Positions 108 through 21,101 of a stretch of DNA of 32,214 bases are shown here, piece after piece. The notes under the pieces are model-generated. The model did not search any database and was not told the DNA's origin. It saw only the letters and a list, made by a program, of their open reading frames with translations. A program made the translations under genes and the position numbers. Each line of letters starts with the position of its first letter. Position 1 is the stretch's first letter. This DNA comes from Candidatus Culexmicrobium profundum (GTDB taxonomy: Archaea > Thermoproteota > Methanomethylicia > Culexarchaeales > Culexmicrobiaceae), in the NCBI GenBank assembly GCA_025061245.1, contig JANZKD010000001.1, positions 1 to 32,214 of the forward strand. The letters run 5' to 3'.

Positions 108-437
108 TTGTGGGTTGAATTGCTGCTCTCAGCTCCTATCACTTTCATAATAATATTCGTAATACTCTACTTGGTTTATTACTCCGGTAAATACACTGCC
201 TTTAAGCATCAGCATACTGAGGCTGAGCTGGATCCATATGCTTGTGGTGAGGGACCTGACAAGTATCCTGCTGAGTATATTCAGATGAATGTCCAGCTGT
301 ATAGATTTGCAATGTACTTTACTATATTTGATGTTGCAGCTTTTCTCCTTGCAGTTTCAGTGAGTTCACCTATTTTGGTGTTAGCATTATACATTGCAGT
401 TATGATTGCTGCATTAATTTTACTTCCGAAAGGGTGA
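108..437 (+). CDS. nuoA: NuoA/ND3-like membrane subunit of a complex-I-like/group 4 hydrogenase complex
   Basis: TTG start preceded by AAGGTGA (94-100). Three hydrophobic helices. DPYACGEGP...YFTIFDVAAFLL resembles the NuoA YECGF...FDVE signature. First gene of a tightly packed operon. Confidence 0.8.
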   Translation: MWVELLLSAPITFIIIFVILYLVYYSGKYTAFKHQHTEAELDPYACGEGPDKYPAEYIQMNVQLYRFAMYFTIFDVAAFLLAVSVSSPILVLALYIAVMIAALILLPKG

Positions 438-441
438 GATT

Positions 442-876
442 ATGGTTTCAATAATTGGGTGGAGTAGGATTAGAAGTCCATGGATCCTCTATATGGGGAC
501 TGGTCATTGTAATGCATGTGATATAGAAGTCCTAGCGGTATTGGCTCCTAGATTTGATGTTGAAAGATTCGGTATCTTATTGAAAGGGAGTCCTAGACAT
601 GCAGATGTCCTTGTTGTTACTGGTGCCGTTTCAAGGCAAACTGCACCAAGACTTAAGAGGATATATGAGCAGATGCCTAATCCTAAATTTGTGATTGCTG
701 TGGGTACCTGTGCTTGTTCAGGTGGTGTTTATTGGGGTTGCTATAATGTCTTAGGAGGAATTGATAAGGTTATTCCTGTTGATGTCTATATACCTGGTTG
801 CCCTGTTAGGCCTGAGGCTGTAATTCAAGGTGTAGCTAAGTTATTGGCTAAACTTCAGGGTGGAGGGAAGAAATAA
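442..876 (+). CDS. nuoB: NuoB-like / group 4 [NiFe]-hydrogenase small subunit (one [4Fe-4S])
   Basis: Motifs GHCNACDIE, GTCACSGG and IPGCPVRPE. The first motif is CxxC as in Mbh/Ech/Hyc small subunits, rather than the tandem CC of complex I NuoB. Confidence 0.9.
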   Translation: MVSIIGWSRIRSPWILYMGTGHCNACDIEVLAVLAPRFDVERFGILLKGSPRHADVLVVTGAVSRQTAPRLKRIYEQMPNPKFVIAVGTCACSGGVYWGCYNVLGGIDKVIPVDVYIPGCPVRPEAVIQGVAKLLAKLQGGGKK

Positions 877-1352
877 TGTCTAAGTCTACTTCGAAGGAAG
901 AATTCATTGCACATGAGCTTAAGAGTAACTTTGGAGATGTAATATCGGAGTTAAAGGTTACTGGGCCGAGGAGAGTTTATGTTACTGTTCCTCCTGAGTC
1001 GCTTCGCGATATTCTACTTTTCCTAAAGAATATGTTTAATGCTAGACATATTGTTACAATTACTGGAATTGATATGATGAAGTCTTTTGAATTAATTTAT
1101 CATATAGCCGTGCCAGGTGAGCATATTAGATCAATTTTAGTTAATGTTAAAACTCATATTCCACGCGATAATCCCACTATGCCTTCAGTTGTTGACATAC
1201 TGCCAGGTGCAACTCTATATGAACGTGAAGTTCATGATTTACTGGGTATTGTTTTTGAAGGACATCCGAATCTTGAAAGATTAATCCTACCTGATGACTG
1301 GCCTGAAGATGAGTTTCCATTAAGAAAGGATTGGAAACCTAAGGAGGTATGA
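876..1352 (+). CDS. nuoC: NuoC-like (30 kDa) subunit
   Basis: YEREVHDLLGIVFEGHPNLERLILPDDWPEDEFPLRKDW matches the NuoC family C-terminal signature. Start overlaps the nuoB stop and its stop overlaps the nuoD start. Confidence 0.85.
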   Translation: MSKSTSKEEFIAHELKSNFGDVISELKVTGPRRVYVTVPPESLRDILLFLKNMFNARHIVTITGIDMMKSFELIYHIAVPGEHIRSILVNVKTHIPRDNPTMPSVVDILPGATLYEREVHDLLGIVFEGHPNLERLILPDDWPEDEFPLRKDWKPKEV

Positions 1353-2533
1353 TGATGTCTATATATAGGATTCCTGTAGGTCCTCAACACCCGGCGATTA
1401 AGGAAGGTTTTCAATGGAACTTTAAATTGGATGGTGAAGTAATCGTTGATGTTACACCTAGATTGGGCTTTGTGCATAGAGGTATTGAGAAGGGAATGGA
1501 GTTAAGGTCATGGGTTCAAGGAATATATCTTGCTGAAAGAATTTGTGGTATTTGCAATACTCCTCACACCACTTGCTATTGTCTTGCAGTAGAGCAGTTA
1601 TATGATGTTGAAGTTCCCAAGAGAGCTCAATATCTAAGAATTATCATCAATGAATTGAACAGGATTCACAGCCACCTTCTCTGGATAGGAGTTTTAGGTA
1701 TGGAAATTGGCTTTATGACGTATTTCATGTATGTATGGAGAGATAGGGAAAGAGTGATGGATATAGTTGAACTAATAACTGGCAATAGAGTTACGATGTC
1801 AATGAACATGATTGGTGGAGTGGTTTACGATATAACTCCGCCAATGGAAGGAATTATTAGAAGGGGACTAGATTATCTTGAGGAAAGAACCAAGTATTAT
1901 AAAGAGGTTCTTTTAAATGAGCCAACTATTCGGGCTAGAACTGAGAATGTAGGTGTGCTTAGTAAGTCTGATGCTATAGATTTATGTGCAGTTGGTCCAA
2001 CTTTGAGAGGTTCTGATGTAAAGAGTGATGCACGTTTTGATGAGCCCTATTCTTCTTATGATGAAATTTCATTTAACTTAGTAACTTACCCCTACTGTGA
2101 TGTTTATGCACGTGCCCTTGTTAGGGCTGATGAGACACTTGAATCAATTAAAATAATTAGAGAATGTCTAGATAAGATGCCTAGTGGGCCAATTAAAGTT
2201 AGATTAAAACGGACTCCTCCTCCTGGTGAAGCTGTAGCAAGAGTTGAAGCTCCAAGAGGAGAATTGCTACATTATGTTAAATCTGATGGGAAGGAAAAGC
2301 CCTATAGAGTTAAAATGAGGACACCGACACTTGCAAATATACCTGCAACCTGTGAAATGTTGAAGGGTTACTATATAGCAGATATCCCTGCAATTATAGC
2401 TAGCATTGATCCATGCTACTGTTGTACTGAACGAATGCTTTTCATAGACATAAATAGTGGCAAAAGTTGGGTATGGACTGATAGTGAGCTTAGGAGGTAT
2501 AGTTTAAAGTATTATCGTGAGAGGAGGAAGTAG
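1349..2533 (+). CDS. nuoD: NuoD-like / group 4 [NiFe]-hydrogenase large subunit with intact Ni-Fe ligand motifs
   Basis: HRGIEKG...RICGICNTPH (aa 64-73, nt 1538-1567) fits RxCGxCxxxH. DPCYCCTER (aa 354-362, nt 2408-2434) fits DPCxxCxx[HR]. A 32-aa tail follows the Arg. Confidence 0.9.
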   Translation: MMMSIYRIPVGPQHPAIKEGFQWNFKLDGEVIVDVTPRLGFVHRGIEKGMELRSWVQGIYLAERICGICNTPHTTCYCLAVEQLYDVEVPKRAQYLRIIINELNRIHSHLLWIGVLGMEIGFMTYFMYVWRDRERVMDIVELITGNRVTMSMNMIGGVVYDITPPMEGIIRRGLDYLEERTKYYKEVLLNEPTIRARTENVGVLSKSDAIDLCAVGPTLRGSDVKSDARFDEPYSSYDEISFNLVTYPYCDVYARALVRADETLESIKIIRECLDKMPSGPIKVRLKRTPPPGEAVARVEAPRGELLHYVKSDGKEKPYRVKMRTPTLANIPATCEMLKGYYIADIPAIIASIDPCYCCTERMLFIDINSGKSWVWTDSELRRYSLKYYRERRK

Positions 2534-3487
2534 ATGATGAATGTTTTGTATTATTTATTTCGAGTTTTGATTTATCCTGGATTTTTGTTTATTTCGGCAT
2601 TGGCATTTGTGTTTGAGTGGATTGATAGGAAAGCTCATGCACACTTCCAAAATAGAATTGGTCCTCTATATGCTGGACCACATGGTTTTCTACAGCCTCT
2701 AGCTGATTTTATAAAGTTAATGGCTAAAGAAGATTTTACTCCAACATGGGCAAATCCAGTATTCTTCAACATTACTCCAGTATTGGCTGCAACACTTCCT
2801 GTTTTTGCTTCATTCTACATTCCATTTACAGGCATGCCTGTTCTGCCTCCGTTTGAAGGGGATCTAGTGCTTGTTTTGACTTTGACTACCTTCTTTACAA
2901 TAACTGCTTTCTTGGCAGGATGGTTTTCATCTAATAGATTTAGCTCTGTGGGTGCTATTAGAGTCGTTCTCCAATTTTTAGGCTATGAAATTCCAATGTT
3001 TATTTCTTTGGGCTCAGCAGCTATTGCTGCTGGCTCTCTTTCAATAACAAAGATTGCTAATAGCCAAGTTATACCATTTGCTATTTTGCAGCCTTTAGGT
3101 TTCGCAATTTACATTATAGCTCTTCAAGCAGAGTTGGAGAAGATCCCATTCGATATTCCTGAGGCTGAAAGTGAAATTGTTGCTGGATGGTTAACTGAAT
3201 TTGCAGGTAGGAAACTGGCTTTCTTTAGGTTATCAGAGGATTTAAGACTAGTTTTAGGTGCTGGCTTGGCAACAGCGGTTTTCCTTGGTGGTGGAAGTGG
3301 TGCTATTCTTCCACCAATAGTTTGGTTCTTGATAAAGATGGTGATAGTAGTTCTTATTGCAACTTCGTTGAGAACTGTTTTCGCCAGGTTGAAGATAGAT
3401 CAGGTTGTTAGAGGTGCATGGAAGTATCTGCTGCCCTTAGCTTTACTTCAATTGTTGATAACTAAAATCTTATTGGTGGTGATGTAG
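2534..3487 (+). CDS. nuoH: NuoH/ND1-like membrane subunit
   Basis: QNRIGPLYAGPHGFLQPLADFIKL and PEAESEIVAGWLTEFAG signatures of NuoH/HycD/MbhM. Multi-TM. Starts immediately after the nuoD stop. Confidence 0.9.
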   Translation: MMNVLYYLFRVLIYPGFLFISALAFVFEWIDRKAHAHFQNRIGPLYAGPHGFLQPLADFIKLMAKEDFTPTWANPVFFNITPVLAATLPVFASFYIPFTGMPVLPPFEGDLVLVLTLTTFFTITAFLAGWFSSNRFSSVGAIRVVLQFLGYEIPMFISLGSAAIAAGSLSITKIANSQVIPFAILQPLGFAIYIIALQAELEKIPFDIPEAESEIVAGWLTEFAGRKLAFFRLSEDLRLVLGAGLATAVFLGGGSGAILPPIVWFLIKMVIVVLIATSLRTVFARLKIDQVVRGAWKYLLPLALLQLLITKILLVVM

Positions 3488-3832
3488 ATGGCGATGCTTA
3501 GGGAGATTTGGAGACATTTCTTTAAAAAGCCTGTAACCGTTAAGTATCCATTTGAAAAACTTGAGCCTGCTGAAAGATATAGGGGAAGGCATGAATTTTA
3601 TATTGATAGATGTGTTGGCTGCGGGTTATGTGCGAAAGAGTGTCCTGCTCTTGCAATAGAGATGGTACCAAGTGATAAGACTGTTGGTGGTAAGAAGCCT
3701 GTTTTCTATTTAGACAGATGTATTTTCTGTCAGCAGTGTGAACGAATTTGCCCTAGAAATGCTATTAAGCTAACGAAGTTCTATGAGCTTGCTGCATATG
3801 ATAAAAGTGAATTGGTACTTGACATTTCCTAG
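3488..3832 (+). CDS. nuoI: NuoI-like 2x[4Fe-4S] ferredoxin subunit
   Basis: Two CxxCxxCxxxCP motifs (CVGCGLCAKECP, CIFCQQCERICP). Starts directly after the nuoH stop. Confidence 0.9.
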   Translation: MAMLREIWRHFFKKPVTVKYPFEKLEPAERYRGRHEFYIDRCVGCGLCAKECPALAIEMVPSDKTVGGKKPVFYLDRCIFCQQCERICPRNAIKLTKFYELAAYDKSELVLDIS

Positions 3833-3898
3833 CTAATGAGGGATAATAGCTAAATATATTCTTTGTTTTAACTTCTATTTATTTGGGAGACTCCTTGG

Positions 3899-5179: not shown

Positions 5180-5841
5180 GATTCTTTCTTTACTAGGAAT
5201 TCTCTCCATCTACCATCTCTTAGTCGTCGGATAACTCCTTTCCATCCTTCTTGATCTACAATGTCTGCGATTATCATCCAATCTATTTTGAGTAGTGCTA
5301 CTGTAATTATTATCAGAAATATTATTGAAGCAATTGCCCCGTATATACTTCCACCCAACATTAATCCTAGGATATTCACAAATGTCTTACCGAATACTGC
5401 TATGAACATGCTTAAAGCTATTTTACCTGCTAGACATGCTATTAGGAATTTGAAGAAACTGTATCTAATTAATCCTAGTGGAATGATTACTATGTCATCT
5501 GGTGATGGTGTAATCGTAAATACGAATACAGCTAATGCTCCATATTTATCAAGTAATTGTCTTAAGCGAGCTATCCTATACTCTTTTTCCTCTCCTATGA
5601 GTTTTCCACTTCCGAAACTGAATATGTATACGATTACTTTACCTACTGTGCCTCCTATTCCGCTAATAATGCCTAGTATTACTGGTTCGACTGGAAGGTA
5701 TGCTGCCATGTAAAATATTGCGACAAGATATGGTATTGGAATAAAGGGTATTAAGTTTCCTAGAACGGACACTATAAATGCGCCTAGGTATCCATGTTCA
5801 ACTACTATTTGTATTAACCATTTCTCTAGATTTTCAAGCAA
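5176..5841 (-). CDS. DedA/SNARE-associated (VTT domain) family membrane protein
   Basis: About 220 aa polytopic protein with a DedA-like layout (GYLGAFIVSVLGN.IPFIP, ITPSPDD). Convergent with the EndoQ-like gene, with a 4-nt overlap. Confidence 0.7.
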   Translation of the reverse strand: MLENLEKWLIQIVVEHGYLGAFIVSVLGNLIPFIPIPYLVAIFYMAAYLPVEPVILGIISGIGGTVGKVIVYIFSFGSGKLIGEEKEYRIARLRQLLDKYGALAVFVFTITPSPDDIVIIPLGLIRYSFFKFLIACLAGKIALSMFIAVFGKTFVNILGLMLGGSIYGAIASIIFLIIITVALLKIDWMIIADIVDQEGWKGVIRRLRDGRWREFLVKKES

Positions 5842-5994
5842 TCAAATTTCACTCCATAACTTCTCCAACGCTGTTTAAATTTGTACTTTATGATATTTAG
5901 CTCTTAATGTTTAAGAGACTGGAAAAGCTTTTAAAGTGTTAAAAGAAACTTCATTATCGCCATGAATCTTTCGTTATAAAGCGGGGGCAGAGAT

Positions 5995-6252
5995 TTGGAG
6001 TTTGCGTCGATTGTATCCTTACTTTTGGGTATACTTATAGTGGCTTTTGCAGTATTGGCTATTGAAATAAAGAACATAACTCATGCAATACTTTCATTAT
6101 GTGCTTTTAGTATAATTATTGCAATAGCCTTCATATTGTTAAATGCTCCATATGTTGCTGTTTTTCAACTTGCAATTTATGCTGGTGCTGTTACTGTTCT
6201 ATTTCTCATTACTATTATGTTAACTAAGAAGGAGGAGGTAGAGTTGCCATGA
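5995..6252 (+). CDS. nuoJ: NuoJ-like subunit, N-terminal part (split nuoJ)
   Basis: TTG start after a GGGGGCAGAG purine run. Three TM helices. VAVFQLAIYAGAVTVLFLITIML resembles the NuoJ Q..VY.GA..VLF signature. Confidence 0.7.
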   Translation: MEFASIVSLLLGILIVAFAVLAIEIKNITHAILSLCAFSIIIAIAFILLNAPYVAVFQLAIYAGAVTVLFLITIMLTKKEEVELP

Positions 6253-6527
6253 AGTTGAATGAAATTATAGGAGCAATTACAGCTCTAATACTTGCCTACT
6301 TTCTAGCTAATCTTCTAACCTCCGGCTTCGCAGAATTAGGGCTCTTTCCCTATGCTGGAAGGGCATTTTGGCTCACACCACCAGGAACAAATTTCTATCA
6401 AATCGGTCAAGCTGTTGGACAGTTTCTATGGAGGCTAAGATCTATTGACGTCTTAGCCCAAGTTCTTGTTCTATTTTCATCGGCACTTGGCGTTGTATGT
6501 TTGCTTAGGGAGGAGAAGGAAAAATGA
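6249..6527 (+). CDS. NuoJ-like subunit, C-terminal part (split nuoJ)
   Basis: 4-nt overlap with the previous ORF. The terminal helix RSIDVLAQVLVLFSSALGVVCLL resembles the last NuoJ helix (FE.aS.LLL.A.iGA). Confidence 0.55.
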   Translation: MKLNEIIGAITALILAYFLANLLTSGFAELGLFPYAGRAFWLTPPGTNFYQIGQAVGQFLWRLRSIDVLAQVLVLFSSALGVVCLLREEKEK

Positions 6528-6841
6528 GTTCTCCACTCTTCACCTTTATGGCTACTTCTGCAGTTTTACTTGCAGTTGGCTTATATGGGCTAATGGTTAA
6601 GAGAAACATGATTAGATTGATAATTTCACTTGAGATTCTAGTTAGTGCTGCGAATTTAAATTTCATAACTTTCTCAGCGTTCAGATCACTGGGTCTAGTT
6701 GATCCACTAGCACATACTTACACAATTATCATCATCTCTATAGAAGCCTGTGTAATTGGTGTAGCCTTGGCTTTCGTTATAAATGCATATAAGCATTATA
6801 AGACTCTTGATGTAACTAAGTTGAAGAAGTTGAGGTGGTAG
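6524..6841 (+). CDS. nuoK: NuoK/ND4L/MrpC-like subunit
   Basis: 105 aa, 3 TM. LYGLMVKRNMIRLIISLEILVSAANLNFI is the NuoK-family signature, including the membrane Glu. Confidence 0.85.
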   Translation: MSSPLFTFMATSAVLLAVGLYGLMVKRNMIRLIISLEILVSAANLNFITFSAFRSLGLVDPLAHTYTIIIISIEACVIGVALAFVINAYKHYKTLDVTKLKKLRW

Positions 6842-8346
6842 CCGTGTTTGCAATAGTTTTGCCTATATTGACTTTGGTTTTCTTTGCAATTGTCACCCCC
6901 TTCCTAAGTAAAATTACTAGGAGTGTTGGTTTAAAGAATGTTGAGAGTTACTGGACAACTTTGGGCTTTTTGCTGGCTTTGATTGTTGATTTCCGTTTGC
7001 TAGGTCCGATTGCTGAGAATAATGTTTTAGTGTACATTCCATACCCTACTTCAAAGCCGCCGGTAGCAGGTTTCTTTGCAGTTGATTGGCTAGGTTTCTT
7101 TGTTTCACTAATTTTCATTTTAGTTGGTTTTCTATCTGCAATACATTCCATCGACTACATGAGTCATGACACTGGTCTTGATCAATATTATGCATTGCTA
7201 TTATTGATGGTTGCTGGAATGGTTGGACTTGCATTTGCAGGTGACTTTTTGACTTTCATTGTTTTCTGGGAGTTAATGAGTATTTCGTCATATTGTCTCG
7301 TTGGCTTTAGAAAGCATCTCTGGGAACCTATAGAGGCTGGATTTAAGTATCTTATAATGAGTGCTTCTGGTTCAGCATTGGTTTTATTTGCCATGTCGAT
7401 ATTATATGGTCTAACTGGTTCACTTAGCTTTGCACATATAGCTTCTTCAATGATGTATGCTGACTCATCACAGCTAATTTACTTAGTGGTGGCTTTACTA
7501 GTTGCTGGTTTTGGAGTTAAGGCAGCTGCTGTTCCATTCCACTTCTGGCTTCCTGACGCTCACCCTGCAGCACCAAGCCCAATTAGCGCTATGCTTTCAG
7601 GTGTTGTAATAAAGACTGGTGTTTATGCGCTTATTAGGACTTTATACCTATTCTTTACTCCCTCACTAGTAGATTTCACCATGATTATGGCAATACTCTC
7701 TGTTGTAACTATGACTGTTGGCAATATTATGGCGCTCCTGCAAAAGGATATAAAGAGGCTACTTGCCTATTCAAGTATTGGTCAAATAGGATATATTCTA
7801 TTAGCAATGTCGTTGGGTACTCCTTTCGGCTTGACTGGTGCTATACTTCACATATTTAACCATGCTCTTATGAAGGGTCTTGCTTTTCTCTGTGCTGGTG
7901 CAATAATTCATGTAGTTGGGACAAGGAATATTGATGAATTAATAGGCGTTGGAAAGAAAATGCCAATTACATCCATTGCATTCAGCATTTCACTATTGTC
8001 CTTAAGTGGTGTGCCATTCCTTAACGGTTTTATAAGTAAATATATGATCTTTGCAGCTGCAATTGAAGCCCACGCCTACCTTCTTACAGTTATCGGTCTT
8101 CTTAATAGCGGGCTGTCTGTTGTATATTACTTAAGGCTGATTCAGCTTTTAATACTTAGAGAGCCGAAGGGTAAAGCCGCTACTGCAAGGGAAGCTTCGA
8201 TTCTAATTTTAATTCCACTCGTAGTTATGGCACTTCTATGTGTTCTGTTTGGAATATGGCCGGAGCCAGTTTACAGGATGGCTGAAGCTGCTGCTAATTC
8301 TGCTTTTGCAAAAATTGAATACATACAATCTGTAATTAAGCCGTGA
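6835..8346 (+). CDS. nuoN: Antiporter-like subunit (NuoN/MrpD/MbhH family)
   Basis: GTG start overlapping the nuoK stop (alternative GTG at 6844). FWELMSISSY (TM5 Glu), GFGVKAAAVPFHFWLPDAH (TM7 Lys), KRLLAYSSIGQIGY. Confidence 0.85.
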   Translation: MVAVFAIVLPILTLVFFAIVTPFLSKITRSVGLKNVESYWTTLGFLLALIVDFRLLGPIAENNVLVYIPYPTSKPPVAGFFAVDWLGFFVSLIFILVGFLSAIHSIDYMSHDTGLDQYYALLLLMVAGMVGLAFAGDFLTFIVFWELMSISSYCLVGFRKHLWEPIEAGFKYLIMSASGSALVLFAMSILYGLTGSLSFAHIASSMMYADSSQLIYLVVALLVAGFGVKAAAVPFHFWLPDAHPAAPSPISAMLSGVVIKTGVYALIRTLYLFFTPSLVDFTMIMAILSVVTMTVGNIMALLQKDIKRLLAYSSIGQIGYILLAMSLGTPFGLTGAILHIFNHALMKGLAFLCAGAIIHVVGTRNIDELIGVGKKMPITSIAFSISLLSLSGVPFLNGFISKYMIFAAAIEAHAYLLTVIGLLNSGLSVVYYLRLIQLLILREPKGKAATAREASILILIPLVVMALLCVLFGIWPEPVYRMAEAAANSAFAKIEYIQSVIKP

Positions 8347-9400: not shown

Positions 9401-11203
9401 ATGTTTCGTCCAGTTGAAATGAAGAAAATTTACATAGTAACGCTCTCTAGACATTTCAATAAGGTAATGGAAGGTCTAGCTAAGTTAGGAGTTGTACATT
9501 TAGCTGATGCTAGAGAGACATTTGAAAAATTAGAGTCTGTTATTGAAGATTTGAGAGATAGGTTGAGAGAGGTTCCGCTTTTTGTTAATGAGTTGAAGAC
9601 GTTACTAGATAAAGTTGATGTTTTAATGAAAAAATTAGAGGTAGAAGATAAATATGTCAAGTTAAGTAAGTTTAAAGGTTTAAGTGTAGAGGATGCTTTA
9701 AAGGTTATAGAAGAGAGAGTTGATGCAATTAATTCAGAGTATGGGGAATTTGTTAAAAAGGCTGAAGAACTTAGTGAGTTGGAGTCGCGACTGAAGGAGT
9801 TGGAGTCAAAGTTTAAAGAAGTTGAACATTTACCTGACACTTCTTCTGTTAAAGTGAAATTGAGAGAAGAATTAGAGTTGGTTAGTGCAGAATTTCAAAT
9901 GAAGATGCAACTTTTGAGAAACTTTCTTGAGTCATTGAGGGAAAAGCATGCTGATTTCTTACTTGAGGCTAAAACGTTTATTGAAATGTATTTGCCGCTT
10001 GAGGAGTCTAAGGTTTTAACTGTGCATACTCCGCTTTTATCTTTTATTGAGGGATTTGTTCCTGTTACTGAAATGGAGAAAGTGAAGTCAATAGTAGAGG
10101 ACTTAACTGATGGTGAGGTCTTAGTGCTGGTTTCTGATTTAGATGAGCATGAGGAAGCTCCTGTTGTGCTTAGGACTCCAAAGTTCATAAAGCCTTTTGA
10201 AACATTGATTAAGACTTATGATGTTCCTTCCTATCATGAGATTAATCCTTCACTTGTAGTTGCGATAACTTTCCCCCTTATATTTGGGTTGATGTTCGCT
10301 GATGTTGGGCATGGATTATTATTGGCGTTATTTGGCGTAGCTATGATTTATGCTAAAAAGAAGGGTTTACCTCCTTCAGAGATGATTCGACTTATAGCTT
10401 CGGGTGCGGAGGTTTATATACTATGTGGAGTAGCTGCAATGTTTGGTGGATTGATGTTTGGTGAAATGTTTGGTTTCCATATGTATGAGATATTAGGTAA
10501 AGCATTTGAGCATCCTCCATTGGGCTTTATATTGGAGAGCATTCCAGGTATTGGGAAAGTGTTTAGTCCTTTGGAGGATCCAATGAAGATGTTTAAGTTG
10601 TCTCTTATTGTTGGTGCGATACATATTGGAATAGGGTTGACTTTAAGAATTCTAAATGAAGTTCTTCTTGGAGAGTATAAGGAGGCATTCTTTGGCTCTG
10701 TTTGTTGGCTTTGGTTTTACGTGGGGTTCATATATTTGGTTTTGTTTAAATTTAAGCTTAATATAGATTTGTGGATTGGAAACACCATACCCTCTCCTCA
10801 GAATCCTCTTCCAATAGGATTTATTGCAATTGTTCTTCCAATAATCATAATGTTTGCAGGAATGGTGAAGCTTGAAGGTTTCATAGACGGGTTTGCACAT
10901 GTCTTTGAGGCAATGATAAGCTCGTTGTCACATACAGTTTCTTATGGACGTATATTAGCTCTTTCTCTTTCACATGGAATTCTAAGTAAATTGTTGACAG
11001 ATGCTTTCCATGCATTGGGTCTTCTGGGGTATCCTATTTTGGCTATTGGAACAATTTTCATGGTAATGGCATTAGAGGGTTTAGTTTCGTTTACACACGT
11101 ACTTAGGTTGACTTGGGTTGAATTTGGTTTCAAGTATTTCCATGGAGGGGGAATGGAGTTTAAACCTTTATCTTTTGGAGTGAATCTTTATGAAGGTGAA
11201 TGA
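9401..11203 (+). CDS. atpI: A/V-type ATPase subunit I (a), full length
   Basis: 600 aa. N-terminal coiled-coil cytoplasmic domain, PSYHEINPS...FPLIFGLMFADVGHG, and SHTVSYGRILALSLSHG with the essential stator Arg. Confidence 0.9.
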   Translation: MFRPVEMKKIYIVTLSRHFNKVMEGLAKLGVVHLADARETFEKLESVIEDLRDRLREVPLFVNELKTLLDKVDVLMKKLEVEDKYVKLSKFKGLSVEDALKVIEERVDAINSEYGEFVKKAEELSELESRLKELESKFKEVEHLPDTSSVKVKLREELELVSAEFQMKMQLLRNFLESLREKHADFLLEAKTFIEMYLPLEESKVLTVHTPLLSFIEGFVPVTEMEKVKSIVEDLTDGEVLVLVSDLDEHEEAPVVLRTPKFIKPFETLIKTYDVPSYHEINPSLVVAITFPLIFGLMFADVGHGLLLALFGVAMIYAKKKGLPPSEMIRLIASGAEVYILCGVAAMFGGLMFGEMFGFHMYEILGKAFEHPPLGFILESIPGIGKVFSPLEDPMKMFKLSLIVGAIHIGIGLTLRILNEVLLGEYKEAFFGSVCWLWFYVGFIYLVLFKFKLNIDLWIGNTIPSPQNPLPIGFIAIVLPIIIMFAGMVKLEGFIDGFAHVFEAMISSLSHTVSYGRILALSLSHGILSKLLTDAFHALGLLGYPILAIGTIFMVMALEGLVSFTHVLRLTWVEFGFKYFHGGGMEFKPLSFGVNLYEGE

Positions 11204-11275
11204 TTTTTTCTAAATAAGAAGTCTTATAAGGAGATTGAATTTTTTATTGATAGTAGAAAAATGGAGGTGTGATGG

Positions 11276-11743
11276 TTGGACCCAACTCTTATGGGTATGC
11301 TTGGTATAGTATTTGCTAGTTGTGCTTCTATTGGTGGAGCGGCGTATGGAATAATTACTGCTGGTGTGTCTATGGCTGGTGCAGGTACTGAGAGGCCTGA
11401 AATAGTCACTAAGGCTTTATTGGCAGTAGTACTGGCTGAAGCTATTGGTATTTATGGGCTGTTGACTTCAGTAATGTTAATTACTAAGATGGACGTTCTA
11501 ATAGCTTCTTATGATGCTGCTGTTAAGGGGTTTTTTGCTGGCTTAATAATGGGAATCTGCGGCTTAGTTGCTGCATTAGCTATTGGTTATACAGGCTCTG
11601 CTATGGCTGGTGCAGGTACTGAGAGGCCTGAAATAGTCACTAAGGTGTTATTGTCTGTAGTACTGGCTGAGGCATTAGCGATTTATGGATTGTTGATTTC
11701 GATAATGGTGATAAATACCATTGGAGTTGCAGTTCCACATTAG
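11276..11743 (+). CDS. atpK: A/V-type ATPase proteolipid subunit K (c), tandem-duplicated 4-TM form with two carboxylates
   Basis: TTG start 6 nt after GGAGGTG. Two hairpin halves each carry AGAGTERPEIVTK..L..VVLAEA..IYGLL. Confidence 0.9.
   Translation: MDPTLMGMLGIVFASCASIGGAAYGIITAGVSMAGAGTERPEIVTKALLAVVLAEAIGIYGLLTSVMLITKMDVLIASYDAAVKGFFAGLIMGICGLVAALAIGYTGSAMAGAGTERPEIVTKVLLSVVLAEALAIYGLLISIMVINTIGVAVPH
11370..11414 (+). repeat. Copy 1 of a 45-nt perfect direct repeat inside atpK
   Basis: CTATGGCTGGTGCAGGTACTGAGAGGCCTGAAATAGTCACTAAGG is identical to 11601-11645. The offset is 231 nt (77 codons). Confidence 0.95.
11601..11645 (+). repeat. Copy 2 of the 45-nt perfect direct repeat inside atpK
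   Basis: Identical to 11370-11414. The flanking bases differ on both sides, and partial similarity continues downstream. Confidence 0.95.
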
Positions 11744-11763
11744 TGTACTTATAGGTGTAATCA

Positions 11764-12366
11764 ATGGCTTCGCAAAATGCTTCCTCTGAGCGGGATGAGC
11801 GATATTATGGTCTAGTGCTTAGATTAGAGGAGATCGATAGAGAGATAAATGGGACACAGAGACTTGATAAAAGGCGGTTATTGAAGGCTAAGAAAAGGCA
11901 TTTGGGCATTTTTTTGGAGACTATTAGGTCTAGAGAGGAAAACGTGCTGAAGTCTTTACATCTTATCGATCGTCATAAGCGAGTGTTAAGGCGAAAGAAG
12001 CCTGGTTTGTTTTTTAAATTGTCAAGGTCTTTGTATAGGCTTTTTAGACCTATTATTCGATTGTTGTCTAAGTTTGCTTCTATTATTTCTATTCCTTCTC
12101 CTCCTCCTTCTAGCTTTGCAAGGAATTGGTCTTTTACGGAGGAAGAGTTGTACCTTTGGAGTAAAGATTTCTCTATGAATCTTCTTAATAATGTTAAGAG
12201 TAATGCGCTTCTTTTGAGAAGTAAGGCTAAAACTGATCTTCATAAGATGAAGTTGAAGATTAGGAAGGGTAGATTGGGTTGGAAGGAAAAGTCGAAGGGA
12301 ATATTATCTAAGGCTTCTGAGTCTTTGAAGAGGGGAAAAGAAACAGCCTTCAAATATGTGAAGTGA
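11764..12366 (+). CDS. Hypothetical very basic (Arg/Lys-rich), helix-rich soluble protein downstream of atpK
   Basis: ATG 6 nt after AGGTG, 20 nt after the atpK stop, same strand. No TM helices and no motif I recognise. Occupies the operon slot usually held by a stalk subunit. Confidence 0.5.
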   Translation: MASQNASSERDERYYGLVLRLEEIDREINGTQRLDKRRLLKAKKRHLGIFLETIRSREENVLKSLHLIDRHKRVLRRKKPGLFFKLSRSLYRLFRPIIRLLSKFASIISIPSPPPSSFARNWSFTEEELYLWSKDFSMNLLNNVKSNALLLRSKAKTDLHKMKLKIRKGRLGWKEKSKGILSKASESLKRGKETAFKYVK

Positions 12367-12368
12367 GC

Positions 12369-13430
12369 TTAGTAGGTTAGTGATTTTTGTATTTCATTGG
12401 CTGATAATCCATATGACTTCCCATAAATTATTGCTTTTAGGTTTTTTACTTCGAACCATTTGAGTCCTAAGAATGCTACGATTAATCCTATATTGAAAGG
12501 AAACGGTTTTCTCCACAGTGTTTTATAATATCCGTATAGGTATTTGTTTAGTATGATTTCGATGTCCGTTAGCTTATTTTCTCTTGCTAGTTCCCTGATT
12601 TGTTTGAATATCTCTCTGTATTGCTCCGCTAGAGTTATCTTTAGTGCCTCTGTTGTGTCTTTGGTTAGAAAGGCTTTTCTCAGAGTTTTAATGGGTATTT
12701 TGTAGGTTTTTTCAATTAGGTTTTCTGCCATTTCTTCCCAAGGGATATTGAGTATTCTTCCTCTAATGGTGTTTTTTACATTGCAGAGGTCTATTTCTAT
12801 TCCAATGTTTTCTTTAGCAATTTTTTTGTCGCTACCTTTTAGCTTATCTGCACTTTCCTGCATTTCTATATAAATGCTTTTGTCTAGTGCTATTTCCCAT
12901 GAAATTAGGTCCTCGTTGCTTTTTAGTTTGTTGTTTTCTATTAGTTTATTGAGATTTATTATTGAGCCTTTTAGATATAGTCTTTGTAGGAGGTCTTTAA
13001 TGTGTTTTGCTTTGGTGTAGGCGTCTAGGTATTCCTTTGTTGAGAGTCCTAGGGGTATTGGGATTAGATATTGTTCAAGTTTTTGTGCTGGTAACTGGAG
13101 ATATTTGCATCTCATTGCTGCTTTGACGTTTTCTTCTTCAAATTTTGTCAGGTATTTGGCTATGAATGTGTTTACGTTTTTGGGTAGCCATTTAATTATT
13201 TCTTGGATTGTGTCGAACATGCTTTGTATGACTGCTTTTTCTAGTTCTATTGGAGTTGATTGTTCGTTTATGTTTCTTATGTATTGTGCGTAGGCTGTGG
13301 AGTTTAGGTATTTGTATAGTTCTTTGTATGGTCTGTTGAGCAATGCGTTGTAGTCTTCTGTTTTTAATAATCTGTTTTTCATTCCTCTTATCTTTGCACT
13401 TATAAATCCATATCTTGCTACATTGGACAT
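12369..13430 (-). CDS. atpC: A/V-type ATPase subunit C (eukaryotic d homologue)
   Basis: The N-terminus YGFISAKIRGMKNRLLKTEDYNALL is the characteristic AtpC/AC39 start. The 353 aa length fits. Confidence 0.85.
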   Translation of the reverse strand: MSNVARYGFISAKIRGMKNRLLKTEDYNALLNRPYKELYKYLNSTAYAQYIRNINEQSTPIELEKAVIQSMFDTIQEIIKWLPKNVNTFIAKYLTKFEEENVKAAMRCKYLQLPAQKLEQYLIPIPLGLSTKEYLDAYTKAKHIKDLLQRLYLKGSIINLNKLIENNKLKSNEDLISWEIALDKSIYIEMQESADKLKGSDKKIAKENIGIEIDLCNVKNTIRGRILNIPWEEMAENLIEKTYKIPIKTLRKAFLTKDTTEALKITLAEQYREIFKQIRELARENKLTDIEIILNKYLYGYYKTLWRKPFPFNIGLIVAFLGLKWFEVKNLKAIIYGKSYGLSANEIQKSLTY

Positions 13431-13478
13431 TCAAACCGCTCCTAATTTTTTGTTAAAACCCTTATGAACTCATTAAGT

Positions 13479-14045
13479 TCACTTATAAAACCCTTGCCTA
13501 AGGTTTTTGGGTGTTGCCAGTAGGGTGTATGTTATAATTGTGAAGAGCCAAGCTATTATTCCTATGACTATTCCTAAGTTGGCATGTGCTTCGCTATAGA
13601 TTTTTCCAATCATGTATCCTAAAATTATGAAGGGTGCCATAAGTGTGAGGAGGATTGTGCTTCTAAGAAGTATTGTTTTGAATAGTTTTTTGCGTTGCTC
13701 TATTATGTCTTTTTGTTTTTCTCTTTCTTCTATTCTTATTTCATTCTCTACTTTTTCTGCTTCTTTTATCATTTCTGTTTTTTCTTTTTTCTTCTCTGTT
13801 GGTGGTTTTACTAGGACTACTGCGTTTTTTATTGCTTCGCCGAGTGTGCTTGGTTTTTTTCCATGTTGTCGATTGATTTTGCATGCTATACTTATAACGT
13901 CTAGTGGTATCCATTTCTCTCCTTTGATGTATTCTTCTAATTCTTTTTCTGTTGTTTTTGTTTTGGCTAAAAATTCTTCTTTGGTTATAAGTTTTATGGC
14001 CTTTTTCAGTGTTTCTACTACTGTTGGAGTGGGCTCCACATACAT
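13479..14045 (-). CDS. Hypothetical membrane-tethered protein with an XRE-like HTH N-domain, Lys/Glu-rich linker and two C-terminal TM helices
   Basis: ITKEEFLAKTKTTEKELEEYIKGEKWIPLDVISIACKI resembles the XRE HTH pattern. It is followed by an EKKKEKTEMIKEAEKVENEIRIEEREKQK linker, then two hydrophobic helices. Packed between atpI-like and atpC on the same strand. Confidence 0.5.
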   Translation of the reverse strand: MYVEPTPTVVETLKKAIKLITKEEFLAKTKTTEKELEEYIKGEKWIPLDVISIACKINRQHGKKPSTLGEAIKNAVVLVKPPTEKKKEKTEMIKEAEKVENEIRIEEREKQKDIIEQRKKLFKTILLRSTILLTLMAPFIILGYMIGKIYSEAHANLGIVIGIIAWLFTIITYTLLATPKNLRQGFYK

Positions 14046-14068
14046 TACTACTTCCCATTTAGTTATAT

Positions 14069-15460
14069 CTAGTGTGCGAATTTAGATATTTTCCCTGCAA
14101 ATAAAGTGTGTGGCATGCTTAATGCTACTTCGCTGCCTGTGCCTTTATAGAATTTTGAAAACCATTCGACCCACATTAGCCTTGTTGTATGAATGAATAT
14201 CACTAGTCCTTCCAATATCATTACTATAAGTGTTCCTATTGCCATCATTGCAATGTTTCCGCCAGATATTTTTATGAACATGCTACTCATTAGTGAGTGC
14301 GCAAGGTTTAATGCTAATATTCTTCCATAGGAGATTGTGTTGCTAAGTGAGGATATTGCTACTTCAAAGGTCATGGCGAAACCTTCAGCCGGGTCTCCTA
14401 TTATCATTTTTCCAATAAGCATTATTGTTAATGGTGCTAGGATTCCATAAAATGTTAATGGATTTGTGATCCATCGCATTATTTCTAGCTTATTTGTGAA
14501 TATGGAATATATGAAGCTTACATAGAACCATAACCAGCATCCCGGTTCTAAGAATGCCTCCAGGTAGTCTTTTTCTAGTATCTTGTTTATGGTGCTCATT
14601 ACTAATCCTGAGCCTATATGGATTCCTCCGACAAGTATTGATAACTTGAACATGTTCATTGGATCTTCTATTGAGTTTATAGGAAGCGTTATTCCTATGG
14701 GTTGTGGTATTCTCAATTTAAATGGTACCATTTCTATGTGGTGTCCAAAGAATTCTCCGAATAGCAGGCCTGTTACCATGGATGCAATGCCGCAGAATAG
14801 GAATATGCTTGCATTCTCAACTATGTAGCTGGTCAAGTTGAATATACTTTTCATTGATGATTTGATTGTTCTTATTATGAGCTTCACTATAATGTGATGT
14901 GTTTCATCTATTTCTTTTTCTATCCACTTTTCAACTCTTATCAGCCTAACTTCTTTATAGTTTGCTATGAGTGCTGTTAGGCCTAGCAATGTTAGGAGGA
15001 ACCCTTGACCCAGATCTGCGAACATTAGTGAGAATATTAATGGGAAGAACATTGCTAGTATTGGGGTGGGATCTATTTCGTTGTATGCTGGTGTTCCAAA
15101 TGCTCTTACGATATTTTCAAATGGCTTCAGAATTTTGTGGTTTCTTAGTATTGTTGGTGCATTTTCTTCTTCGTGAATTATTTCGAATGTGCAATTGATT
15201 CTATCAAGGCTCTTTAGTTTTTTAGATACTTCTTCTGCACTCTTGGCTGGTATCCATCCCTCTATATAAGTTGCTTCCTTTAATGATAGGCCGCCATGAA
15301 GGGGAAGTAGTTCTTCCCAACCGCTTATATCTTTAATAATGCCTGAGAGATAAAAATGAGCATTTCCATTTAATAGGTCAACTATGTTCTCTAGGTGTTT
15401 TTTCTCAACTAATACTCTAACTTTTAAGAGTCGTAAGGGCCTCATAATATTGTCCCGCAT
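14069..15460 (-). CDS. A/V-type ATPase subunit I paralogue with truncated cytoplasmic N-domain
   Basis: 463 aa. TPAYNEIDPTP...FPLIFSLMFADLGQG and SNTISYGRILALNLAHS (stator Arg) are conserved. The YNEIDP motif is at aa 126, against aa 278 in the 600-aa copy. The start could be M6 (15445), giving an MRPLRLL N-terminus parallel to MFRPVEM. Confidence 0.85.
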   Translation of the reverse strand: MRDNIMRPLRLLKVRVLVEKKHLENIVDLLNGNAHFYLSGIIKDISGWEELLPLHGGLSLKEATYIEGWIPAKSAEEVSKKLKSLDRINCTFEIIHEEENAPTILRNHKILKPFENIVRAFGTPAYNEIDPTPILAMFFPLIFSLMFADLGQGFLLTLLGLTALIANYKEVRLIRVEKWIEKEIDETHHIIVKLIIRTIKSSMKSIFNLTSYIVENASIFLFCGIASMVTGLLFGEFFGHHIEMVPFKLRIPQPIGITLPINSIEDPMNMFKLSILVGGIHIGSGLVMSTINKILEKDYLEAFLEPGCWLWFYVSFIYSIFTNKLEIMRWITNPLTFYGILAPLTIMLIGKMIIGDPAEGFAMTFEVAISSLSNTISYGRILALNLAHSLMSSMFIKISGGNIAMMAIGTLIVMILEGLVIFIHTTRLMWVEWFSKFYKGTGSEVALSMPHTLFAGKISKFAH

Positions 15461-15608: not shown

Positions 15609-16142
15609 GTGGGCAAGATTACTACTATTAAAATAAATGATGATGCATTGGCATATATTGAAGTCGTATTAAAAGGTGGGCGTTTTCGTCATTTGAAGGA
15701 TTTTGTTAACCACTGCTTAACCTTAGCTGCGACCTACACTATGGATGAGTGGGATTTAAACAAAGGTGTATTTTATATTCATCCTTGTAGGATTTGTATT
15801 GTTCCAGCTGATATACTATCTGCATTGCTTGAACTTATTCCTGATGATGCGAAGAAGGATGCTATTGAAAGCATGACTTCTTGTTTGCGTCCTAGACTTC
15901 GTTTTTGGCATATTACACCTAAGAAGCCCGAGGATCGCCGTAAAATTTTAAAGTTGCTGACTTTGCATGGTTTTGGAAGATTCACAATACAAGATGACAA
16001 TACTATTGAAGTTTCTTACCCTGTTCTTCCATATGACATAGTTAAAAGTGTTCTTGAAACATTATTAAAAGTAAGATTGGAAACTTTAGAGTGCTCAAAG
16101 GTTACGTATGTCTTTAAAATTATTGAAGAGCTAAATGAGTAG
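15609..16142 (+). CDS. Hypothetical protein, possible ribbon-helix-helix-like N-terminus
   Basis: GTG start after GGTGA. The N-terminus KITTIKINDDALAYIEVVLKGGRFRHLKDFVNHCL has a beta-strand plus two-helix pattern like CopG/Arc RHH. No other motif recognised. Confidence 0.45.
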   Translation: MGKITTIKINDDALAYIEVVLKGGRFRHLKDFVNHCLTLAATYTMDEWDLNKGVFYIHPCRICIVPADILSALLELIPDDAKKDAIESMTSCLRPRLRFWHITPKKPEDRRKILKLLTLHGFGRFTIQDDNTIEVSYPVLPYDIVKSVLETLLKVRLETLECSKVTYVFKIIEELNE

Positions 16143-16235: not shown

Positions 16236-18398
16236 ATGATAATATATTCTCCCTGGCTATGTTGGCTCATACCAATTGTAGGAGCGATGCTAACTCCCTT
16301 TATAGCTAGAATAAGTGAGAAGGCTCGAGATTATACTGCTGTTTTATTTGGTTTTTTAGCTGCTGTTATGGCTGCATCTATGATACCAGCGATAATGGCT
16401 GGTAAATTTTATATTCCAGGTAAGGGTTTGGTTCCGATTCCTGCTGATTGGAAGTATGAGTGGATCATTGTTCCTGGAGCTAAGCTTAATGTTGGTGTGC
16501 TTGTTGATCCATTAAGTGTTTTAGTGGCTAATGTTGTAGCTTGGATTTCCTTTTTAATTCTAATTTACAGCTTGGGCTATATGCATGGAGAGGAGGGTTT
16601 AACTAGGTATTGGTTCTTCATGAACTTCTTTATTGGAAACATGCTTCTCCTCGTAATGTCTGATAATATTCTTCAAATGTTATTTGGATGGGAGGGTGTT
16701 GGTTTATGCAGCTATCAGCTCATTGGTTTTTGGTATAGAGATGAGCGTAAGAGATGGGTTGGAGATGTTCCACCTTCACATGCAGGTATGAAGGCTTTCA
16801 TAATGACTAGGGCTGGAGATGTAGCTCTAATGATTGCTGCTTTCATAATATTTACTCAAGCTAAGACCTTTAATTTCATGGAACTTCAACAAAATCATGA
16901 ATGGATAGTTGAGTTGGCTAAGGTTGGTTTAATTGCACCAGTAGCATTATTTCTTTTTGGTGGTCCTATCGGTAAATCCGCTCAATTTCCATTACATGAA
17001 TGGCTTCCTGAGGCAATGGCTGGTCCAACTCCTGTTTCAGCTCTAATACATGCTGCTACCATGGTTAAGGCTGGTGTCTACTTTACTGCTAGAGTCTTCC
17101 CTATTTTCACTGAGAGCTTTAAGTTAGCTGCTGAGGGAGTTCATAACGGGTTCGAGGGAGTAATACTTACAGCCCAAAATCAATTCTTCCTAACTGTTGC
17201 GTGGATTGGTGCTTTTACAGCTTTTCTAGCTGCTTCTCAAGCTATGGTTGCTAGGGAGTTGAAGAAGGTTTTAGCTTATTCAACTGTTTCACAGATAGGC
17301 TATATGATGCTTGGTTTAGGTGCTGGTGGATTGGCTGGTGAACATGCTGCTAGTGGTTATGTTGCAGGTGTATTTCACTTGATGAGCCATGCTATATTCA
17401 AGGCGCTACTCTTCATGGCTGCTGGATCCGTTTTACATGCATGTGAGACAACTGATATGTTTGAGATGGGTGGTATTAGGAGGGAAATGCCAATTACATT
17501 TGCATGTATGCTCATTGGTGCTTTGTCATTGTCAGGAATTCCACCATTAAGTGGATTTTGGAGTAAGGAGGCTGTTTTTGGTGCATGTATAAAGTCTGGA
17601 CAATATTTATTGTTAGCTTTGGCTGCTATTACTGCTGCAATGACTTTCTTCTATAGTATTAGGATGATTAGTATAACTTTCTTGGGTAAGAAGAGTCATC
17701 ATTTGGAGGAGCTTGAACGTCATGGTCATCATGTACATGAAGTTCCATCTGTAATGTGGATTCCATATTTAATATTAGCTGTTGCTACTATTGGTATTGG
17801 TTTTATGGGTCCTATGTTTGAGCATATGTTAGAAGAGTTTCTTGAGCCATCCATATTCCCTCATCACGGTATACATTCATCGCTTCTCGCAATTTCAACT
17901 ACTGCTGAGCCTGCTGGTCCGCCAACCCAGTTGATGACTATGGTTATAACTGCTTCAATGCTTCTTCTTGGTGGAATTCCTGGTTATCTTATGTATGTTT
18001 CAAGGAGAGTAGATCCAGTAAAATTTGTGGATAGGTATGGTCTAAAGCCAATATATAATTTCTTGTGGAATCGATGGTATATGAACCCTACATACTATAA
18101 GGTCTTTGTATACTCTCTGATTGACTTGAGCTCTGTCCTATTTAAAAATCTCGAGAAGGCTGTGATTGACAAGGTTAACTATGTGGTTGCTAATGGAATT
18201 ATAAAAATGAGTGCAGGGTTGTTTAGAAGTTTAGAAGTGAAGGTAATTGATGGTGCAAATTATGCTTTAGCTAAGGCTGTGGTTGCCTTCTATAGGGTGT
18301 TTCGAAGAATTCAGACTGGAATTCTGTCGTACAATATGCTTGGAATAGTTTTTGGCCTCTTGGTTGTTGGTGCCTTACTTATTTTATTAGGACTATAA
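16236..18398 (+). CDS. nuoL: NuoL/ND5-like antiporter-like subunit with C-terminal lateral helix and anchor TM
   Basis: GWEGVGLCSY (TM5 Glu), GKSAQFPLHEWLPEAM (TM7 Lys), MKAFIMTRAGD. About 105 aa of amphipathic sequence (aa 591-695) is followed by a final TM (aa 696-720), as in NuoL helix HL plus TM16. Confidence 0.9.
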   Translation: MIIYSPWLCWLIPIVGAMLTPFIARISEKARDYTAVLFGFLAAVMAASMIPAIMAGKFYIPGKGLVPIPADWKYEWIIVPGAKLNVGVLVDPLSVLVANVVAWISFLILIYSLGYMHGEEGLTRYWFFMNFFIGNMLLLVMSDNILQMLFGWEGVGLCSYQLIGFWYRDERKRWVGDVPPSHAGMKAFIMTRAGDVALMIAAFIIFTQAKTFNFMELQQNHEWIVELAKVGLIAPVALFLFGGPIGKSAQFPLHEWLPEAMAGPTPVSALIHAATMVKAGVYFTARVFPIFTESFKLAAEGVHNGFEGVILTAQNQFFLTVAWIGAFTAFLAASQAMVARELKKVLAYSTVSQIGYMMLGLGAGGLAGEHAASGYVAGVFHLMSHAIFKALLFMAAGSVLHACETTDMFEMGGIRREMPITFACMLIGALSLSGIPPLSGFWSKEAVFGACIKSGQYLLLALAAITAAMTFFYSIRMISITFLGKKSHHLEELERHGHHVHEVPSVMWIPYLILAVATIGIGFMGPMFEHMLEEFLEPSIFPHHGIHSSLLAISTTAEPAGPPTQLMTMVITASMLLLGGIPGYLMYVSRRVDPVKFVDRYGLKPIYNFLWNRWYMNPTYYKVFVYSLIDLSSVLFKNLEKAVIDKVNYVVANGIIKMSAGLFRSLEVKVIDGANYALAKAVVAFYRVFRRIQTGILSYNMLGIVFGLLVVGALLILLGL

Positions 18399-20995: not shown

Positions 20996-21101
20996 TGTTG
21001 ATTTTATAAATTTGCATCATCTTGTTTAGCATAAATGTTTTATATGGTTAGTATAGACTGCATAATGCAATTAGTTGACGCTTAATTTGGGAGGTTGTCA
21101 T

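Follow-up and report, generated by a model that had tools for sequence, protein, structure and literature searches.

An I-K-C gene island with a shortened second subunit I, probably belonging to an A-type ATP synthase with dispersed genes, in Candidatus Culexmicrobium profundum

We analyzed a 32,214-nucleotide stretch of contig JANZKD010000001.1 (assembly GCA_025061245.1, positions 1 to 32,214; hereafter the window) of the archaeon Candidatus Culexmicrobium profundum, which carries an island of ATP synthase (atp) genes at positions 9401-15460. The open reading frame (ORF) listing and Pfam scans bore out the six ORFs in two convergent operons described in an earlier, sequence-only reading of this DNA, the stop codons of the two operons lying 2 bp apart (Table 1). 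The plus strand encodes a full-length stator subunit I (long I), atpK and a basic protein (u200); on the minus strand a shortened subunit I paralogue (short I), a small membrane protein (u188) and atpC are co-oriented with spacings of 23 and 48 bp. The island thus accounts for subunits I, K and C of an A-type ATP synthase. In public gene calls, short I (P0001) starts at Met6, with the start codon at 15445 and a length of 458 amino acids (aa), and this is probably the true start. As the sequence-only reading had stated, no gene for the A1 head subunits A, B, D, E, F or H was found in the 32 kb, either by Pfam scans of substantial ORFs or by tblastn with the corresponding proteins of relatives, where nothing significant was obtained (the best hit, with D at an E value of 0.04, was spurious). 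A scan of the window with bacterial promoter and terminator models gave no excess of sites, such models being uninformative for an archaeon.

Long I, K and C carry the hallmarks of a membrane sector. In long I, residues 35-183 form a coiled-coil hairpin, as judged by matches to coiled-coil families, and the essential arginine is R517. Sequence matches in the PDB were to V-ATPase subunit a and Thermus subunit I, with SYGRILALSLSH aligning to the motif SYLRLWALSLAH; R517 of long I and R380 of short I both align to the SY.R..AL.L.H motif of solved a subunits. The atpK product is a duplicated c subunit. Direct reading of its sequence showed that a carboxylate is kept in each of the two hairpins, VVLAEAIGIYGLL and VVLAEALAIYGLL, the glutamate (LAEA) being present in both VVLAEA motifs.

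Table 1. Genes of the atp island and of the flanking hydrogenase blocks (window coordinates; TM, transmembrane)
Feature	Position	Strand	Basis and remarks
atpI, full-length stator subunit I/a (long I), 600 aa	9401..11203	+	Pfam V_ATPase_I, E 1.6e-54
atpK, c subunit, 155 aa, 4 TM	11276..11743	+	Pfam ATP-synt_C, two stretches, E 1.9e-27
u200, basic soluble protein, 200 aa	11764..12366	+	no Pfam/NCBIfam match
atpC, subunit C/d, rotor socket, 353 aa	12369..13430	-	Pfam vATP-synt_AC39 PF01992, E 2.2e-52, full length; NCBIfam AhaC
u188, 188 aa, two C-terminal TM helices	13479..14045	-	no Pfam family
short atpI paralogue (short I), 463 aa	14069..15460	-	Pfam V_ATPase_I, E 2.5e-35
u177, divergent neighbour of short I	15609..16142	+	no family match
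Group 4 [NiFe]-hydrogenase core, NuoA-, B-, C-, D-, H-, I-like	108..3832	+	Pfam
Hydrogenase membrane subunits: MbhD/NuoJ-like, NuoK-like, antiporter-like 503 aa	5995..8346	+	Pfam; immediately upstream of island
NuoL-like antiporter subunit, 720 aa	16236..18398	+	Pfam; immediately downstream of island
Further antiporter-like gene	21075-22595		Pfam

The head genes are on record elsewhere in the same genome. The u188 protein is 100% identical to NDF54_00090 of GB-1867-035, the metagenome-assembled genome (MAG) of Candidatus Culexmicrobium profundum (Culexarchaeia), which was recovered from sediment of the Guaymas Basin and comprises 296 contigs with 96.7% estimated completeness and 7.8% redundancy (Kohtz et al., 2022, PMC9723716). 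The window corresponds to scaffold Ga0190363_1000226 of that MAG, and the supplementary table of the paper, which gives IMG gene identifiers for each MAG, lists atpI as Ga0190363_100022614 and _100022619, atpK as _100022615 and a single copy of atpC as _100022617 (PMC9723716). These gene numbers (14, 15, 17 and 19) match the order of the window ORFs exactly. In the same column, atpB, A, F, E and H are genes 4, 5, 6, 7 and 8 of scaffold 1000443, atpD is gene 8 of scaffold 1001067, and there is no further I, K or C (PMC9723716). Hence, by the published table, A, B, D, E, F and H are all present in the genome that holds the island; in relatives (see below) whole clusters were read directly.

In other Culexarchaeia, too, the table divides the atp genes into the three groups [I K .. 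C], [H E F A B] and [D] (PMC9723716). In YNP-LCB-24-027 all the genes lie on one 1.08-Mb scaffold, with C, K and I as genes 117, 119 and 120, B-A-F-E-H as genes 383-387 and D as gene 464 (PMC9723716). Because the three groups share one scaffold there, the split is real and not a binning artefact. Dispersed atp genes have been described as usual in Crenarchaeota (PMC3189178). We conclude that the island is probably the I, K, C portion of one ordinary, dispersed A-type ATP synthase gene set whose head is encoded elsewhere in the genome. Of the two explanations proposed in the sequence-only reading, the split operon with a distant head was thus the right one, H-E-F-A-B and D being tabulated on two other scaffolds; the other, an Ao-like module with alternative stators and no A1, does not hold for the island as a whole, since head genes are tabulated for this and related MAGs.

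Clusters of relatives that could be read from their DNA present the same genes in a single enzyme. Bathyarchaeia-labelled contigs carry orthologues of all six window genes alongside a single head-gene set, in several arrangements. In L001 and L011, A, B and short I are followed by a gene for a HAD-family hydrolase and a u188-like gene, then I and K convergent with C, and D, F, E and H beyond; in L006/L098 the order is K and u200-like, then C after a gap, then A, B, H, E, F, D and u188-like, and then short I. In L012/L105, L097, L102, L104 and L106, F, A, B, D and u188-like precede C, which converges on u200-like, K and I, followed by a gene for a small membrane protein (u155) that converges on short I, and then by H and E. 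Each of these contigs has one A/B/D/E/F/H set, one K and one C. The clusters of Candidatus Bathyarchaeum tardum and of bin695 (L017 and L020) are collinear with the L012 type and differ from it by the absence of exactly short I, u155 and the u188-like gene; the three genes therefore form a clean presence/absence polymorphism between collinear clusters. Closer to the window, u177 diverging from short I, u188 and C, and C converging on u200, is an order kept in L092, whose short I is only 56% identical, and in the near-identical Logan contig L094. In all genomes with a readable region, short I was found alongside long I. Among the head subunits, type-1 B proteins are 60-82% identical to one another and 56-59% identical to those of other types, and D is about 30% identical to everything.

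Short I has a complete membrane domain and differs from long I in its soluble part. In pairwise alignment, residues 64-457 of short I match long I 214-600 with 36% identity and residues 5-54 align to long I 1-60, so that about 150 residues of long I (61-213) have no counterpart. A coiled-coil signal was detected in long I only, and the bilobed N-terminal domain with hairpin and distal lobe is not found in short I. An AlphaFold model of short I (predicted local distance difference test score, pLDDT, 78.6) has one beta-alpha-beta lobe (residues 9-121), after which comes the membrane domain; its best Foldseek matches are V-ATPase a subunits and Thermus subunit I, in their membrane domains. Between the first two membrane helices (residues ~165-205) short I of this species carries a charged helical insertion of about 40 residues, which it shares with the 74%-identical P0002 alone, the rest of the family being without it.

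Short-I homologues fall into 21 clusters at 90% identity, and those with names are labelled Bathyarchaeia or Bathyarchaeota. Although members of the family are only 37-45% identical, an alignment of 20 of them has 54 invariant columns, which include R380, H388, E417 and R427; we take these four to be the equivalents of R735, H743, E789 and R799 of yeast Vph1p, which have been linked to proton transport. Conservation is lower in the N-terminal lobe, whose mean identity to the window protein is 31% versus 50% for the membrane domain and whose conserved residues in most members are P8, G68, W69 and P71. In a neighbor-joining tree, which is rough and carries no support values, the short forms make up one clade that branches from within the long forms (536-600 aa) of the same archaea. 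Of the 120 short-I matches listed, none was named as Thermoproteus, and a profile scan of GTDB genomes with the short-I alignment returned, among the matches listed, mostly long I of many phyla and nothing from the window's own genome. Judging by alignment and model, short I looks like a working half-channel from which part of the soluble domain is missing. The sequence-only reading had considered an ordinary split operon with a recent paralogue, in which case relatives were expected to show the same split with a single atpI. The split is indeed seen in relatives, but most of them carry two atpI genes, and short I is an old conserved clade rather than a recent copy.

Two family members are reduced further. 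In P0020 (L091 5004-6146) and P0021, a hydrophobic segment takes the place of the N-terminal alpha/beta lobe, and the arginine motif is preserved. P0020 is a short I of 380 aa in which this segment, probably transmembrane, is followed by an Asp/Gly-rich stretch, and the C-terminal tail is cut. L091 itself is a 13.7-kb contig with a GC content of 32% and no other atp gene within it; this sublineage probably belongs to terrestrial Culexarchaeia.

Among the accessory genes, u188 belongs to a very rare family (18 clusters among 5.8 billion proteins, with no Pfam domain in any of them) that is confined to these ATP synthase clusters. At 14 of 14 JGI loci it lies in or beside atp genes, in Bathyarchaeia usually directly after atpD. 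The predicted structure (pLDDT 77 overall, about 90 for residues 1-70) begins with a five-helix domain modelled with confidence, continues through a linker that is poorly predicted and ends in a long helix leading into a two-TM hairpin. The best Foldseek matches of the N-terminal domain are all helix-turn-helix (HTH) proteins of the XRE type, at scores short of significance (E values 0.8-3; TM-scores, normalized by target length, 0.5-0.64). The predicted fold lends weak support to the HTH part of the label "HTH-membrane protein" given to this ORF in the earlier reading. The hairpin resembles small two-TM proteins encoded beside the atpI genes of relatives (L4_u93 and L6_u102; hhalign probability 88.5%, E value 2.7e-6). 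These in turn match PF09527 (AtpZ/ATPase_gene1) below threshold, with E values of 0.001-0.009 and 16.5-19.5 bits against a cut-off of 26.6; u188 itself had no PF09527 match in the profile scan. We interpret u188 as a membrane protein associated with the ATP synthase, whether as one of its subunits or as a factor in its assembly. A role as a rigid, b-like stalk in place of the lost hairpin was considered and rejected: because the linker is proline-rich or deleted in other lineages and is modelled with low confidence, it is more likely a flexible tether.

The u200 protein is very basic, has no hydrophobic segment and gave three phmmer matches among 1.8 billion representatives. It is 35% identical to the ORF at the same position, after atpK, in L092, and has a weak motif match to L6_u171, which is itself linked to L12_u187, L17_u184 and L20_u177. 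These similarities suggest a fast-evolving family located after atpK in clusters of Culexarchaeia and Bathyarchaeia. The family is independent of short I, as linked ORFs also occur in clusters without short I. The possibility that u200 is a divergent subunit E or H was rejected, since clusters of relatives carry separate E and H genes. On the other side of the island, u177 stands beside short I in four Culexarchaeia-type contigs and is better conserved than short I, the divergent neighbor of short I being 72% identical in L092, 55% in L091 and 98% in L094. Its N-terminus, read from the sequence alone, has a ribbon-helix-helix pattern, which makes u177 a candidate regulator. It is not a detached N-terminal domain of subunit I, as a "split a subunit" would require (hhalign probability 0.2%).

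For short I we tentatively favor the role of an alternative stator isoform that shares the c-ring with long I. The part of the soluble domain that it has lost presumably carries one of the peripheral-stalk attachment sites seen in Thermus and yeast structures. Short I would thus use the same c-ring and proton path as long I with fewer or different anchoring points for the peripheral stalk, possibly under separate expression control. Several observations weigh against this assignment or against the single dispersed enzyme to which it belongs. A hydrophobic segment in place of the lobe, as in P0020, P0021 and L091, fits poorly with a subunit that holds the peripheral stalk. The sole atpC, if it is in one operon with short I, means that this operon is not purely conditional. 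The expression and assembly of short I are predictions from sequence, and the head scaffolds 1000443 and 1001067 are known from the published table alone and not from their DNA, so that at 7.8% redundancy a mis-binned head scaffold is formally possible for this one MAG. That the organism truly lacks A1, with head scaffolds that come from another organism and an island that is a free-standing Ao, is nevertheless very improbable: although the MAG is fragmented and redundant, A and B are tabulated for six other Culexarchaeia MAGs, most of which also have E, F and H (PMC9723716), one MAG has the head and I-K-C on the same 1.08-Mb scaffold, and each cluster of a relative that is readable far enough has one head set.

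It is unlikely that short I is no working stator at all and serves as a placeholder or chaperone in c-ring assembly, or is a decaying duplicate. Its truncated N-terminal domain and the lower conservation of the remaining lobe (31% versus 50%) could be taken in that sense, as could the resemblance of the hairpin of its partner u188 to small proteins that weakly match AtpZ/ATPase_gene1, some members of which are linked to c-ring assembly. However, 54 invariant columns that include the four proton-path residues are not expected of a decaying duplicate at 37-45% identity, the clade is old and monophyletic in the neighbor-joining tree, and a pure chaperone would have no need of the catalytic arginine. 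We likewise give little credence to the proposal that short I and the K ring, perhaps joined by C and u188, form an A1-free, Ao-like complex acting as a regulated ion leak or an otherwise-coupled rotor, which is the second explanation of the sequence-only reading narrowed to the paralogue. When Vo is isolated, the soluble part of subunit a touches subunit d and blocks rotation, and an a subunit without this part would impose no such block; short I lacks the hairpin and the distal lobe. Also in favor of the proposal are P0020 and P0021, where the whole cytoplasmic lobe has given way to a hydrophobic segment while the arginine motif is kept, and L007, L010 and L091, where short I is apart from all other atp genes. 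Against it, short I is accompanied by no K or C copy of its own, its place in Bathyarchaeia-labelled clusters is between H-E and I-K of a single complete enzyme, and most members keep an N-terminal lobe with conserved P8, G68, W69 and P71. Similarly doubtful is a more specific arrangement, in which short I and its partners (u188 and u155 in Bathyarchaeia, u188 and u177 in Culexarchaeia) make a second kind of Ao stator on the same c-ring, without the A1 head or with a single stalk. If true, this would equip these anaerobes, in addition to the usual ATP synthase, with an ion conductance under regulation or an enzyme of different gearing, and would be the first case of prokaryotic stator-isoform switching with a structurally reduced a subunit.

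The closest published parallel is Thermoproteus tenax, which has dispersed atp loci with atpI-1 and atpI-2 and one set of the remaining subunits; the paper gives the role of the duplication as unknown (Siebers et al., 2011, PMC3189178). Going by the published description, the two cases are alike in that a TACK archaeon has its atp genes spread over several loci and two atpI; the T. tenax paper makes no mention of u188, u177 or u200. Kohtz et al. (2022), reporting the genome studied here, list both atpI, atpK, atpC and the head genes in their supplement without comment, while the main text mentions ATP synthase once and does not describe the two atpI, the truncation or the accessory ORFs (PMC9723716). 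In the searchable literature, which is incomplete, we found no description of an atpI truncation or of the accessory genes; the T. tenax duplication paper was the one related report. The dispersed atp layout of TACK archaea is thus already known, and both atpI genes were tabulated in the 2022 supplement; new is the structurally reduced stator paralogue with a small set of co-occurring genes.

The most familiar stator paralogues are the a isoforms of eukaryotic V-ATPases (yeast Vph1p/Stv1p, mammalian a1-a4), which share the other subunits and so give alternative enzyme forms. Both window I proteins match these chains, and the membrane domain and essential arginine are conserved as in them. Every eukaryotic isoform is full length, both lobes of its N-terminal domain being present, whereas short I lacks the hairpin and the distal lobe. 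Subunit I of Thermus thermophilus and Enterococcus hirae (PDB 6r0z, 5y5x and 8wci) is homologous to short I in the membrane domain and the proximal soluble domain, residues 66-161 of short I aligning to Thermus I 278-377; the structural match by Foldseek has an E value of 1e-9. These proteins, however, have 650-670 aa and about 275 soluble residues before the aligned region, where short I has about 60. As a two-TM hairpin protein encoded in an ATP synthase operon, u188 may be compared with the AtpZ/AtpI-type proteins (PF09527) of F- and N-type ATPase operons, but it has an extra N-terminal helical domain, and all related matches are below the Pfam threshold. A headless membrane module would have been striking, whereas the layout found here is the normal dispersed TACK arrangement. 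The puzzle lies instead in the retention, by Culexarchaeia and Bathyarchaeia-labelled MAGs, of a hairpin-less second I with every proton-path residue and rare partners. The same question about the duplication was raised for T. tenax in 2011, and we found no answer to it in the searchable literature. The presence/absence pattern delimits a defined gene set, otherwise collinear clusters differing by exactly short I, u155 and u188.

Further features were noted around short I in relatives. A HAD-family hydrolase gene adjoins it in the Bathyarchaeia-labelled contigs L001 (11247-11921), L007 (11284-11973), L008 (1867-2556), L010 (11217-11915) and L006 (1014-1691), and stays beside it even where the other atp genes are far off; there is none near short I in the window. 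Members of a small polytopic membrane family (u155/u138/u91) likewise lie beside short I in Bathyarchaeia-labelled clusters (L012 11296-11763, L007 12104-12520, L006 1961-2386), with two tandem copies in L102, L104 and L106, and the family is missing from the collinear clusters without short I. A search of the window for a u155-family homologue found none. In L107 (13906-15496), a Bathyarchaeia contig, a second pair of atpK and u200-like genes, in divergent orientation, occupies the expected site of long atpI. In L093, a 33,096-bp JGI contig of the same region with a 100% identical u188, atpC is called as two ORFs of 238 and 120 aa (10616-11675); given the intact 353-aa ORF in the window, this is probably an assembly frameshift.

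The genes that flank the island encode a true group 4 [NiFe]-hydrogenase. Its large subunit (ORF 1349-2533) has the motifs RICGICNTPH and DPCYCC and matches Pfam Complex1_49kDa and the N-terminus of NiFeSe_Hases. The hydrogenase genes form four blocks (108-8346, 16236-18398, 21075-22595), between which lie the atp island and unrelated genes, namely those for a TIGR00375/MJ0043-like ORF, a DedA/VTT protein, TtuA, RtcA and a FAU-1/RNase E-like protein. NuoL/M/N-type antiporter-like genes also directly adjoin atp genes in L001 (1-6336), L004 (5415-8996 and 13303-20928), L006 (11351-14927) and L095 (31-1524). With such neighbors in Bathyarchaeia-labelled relatives, the linkage between ATP synthase and a complex-I-like membrane arm recurs across classes, and this conserved neighborhood gives some support to the tie with the hydrogenase membrane arm that the sequence-only reading had suggested. 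By analogy with Pyrococcus, a coupling through the hydrogenase gradient has been proposed (PMC9723716), and the ATP synthase would most likely make ATP from the ion gradient generated by the neighboring, ferredoxin-oxidizing group 4 hydrogenase. Finally, Bathyarchaeia-labelled atp clusters repeatedly contain a gene for a zinc-ribbon-like protein of 60-83 aa, whose motif is CPYCNR.FC..H; the gene lies just upstream of atpA in L001 (6328-6528), L011 (362-559) and L097 (1606-1788) and adjoins the u200-like gene in L006 (590-838).

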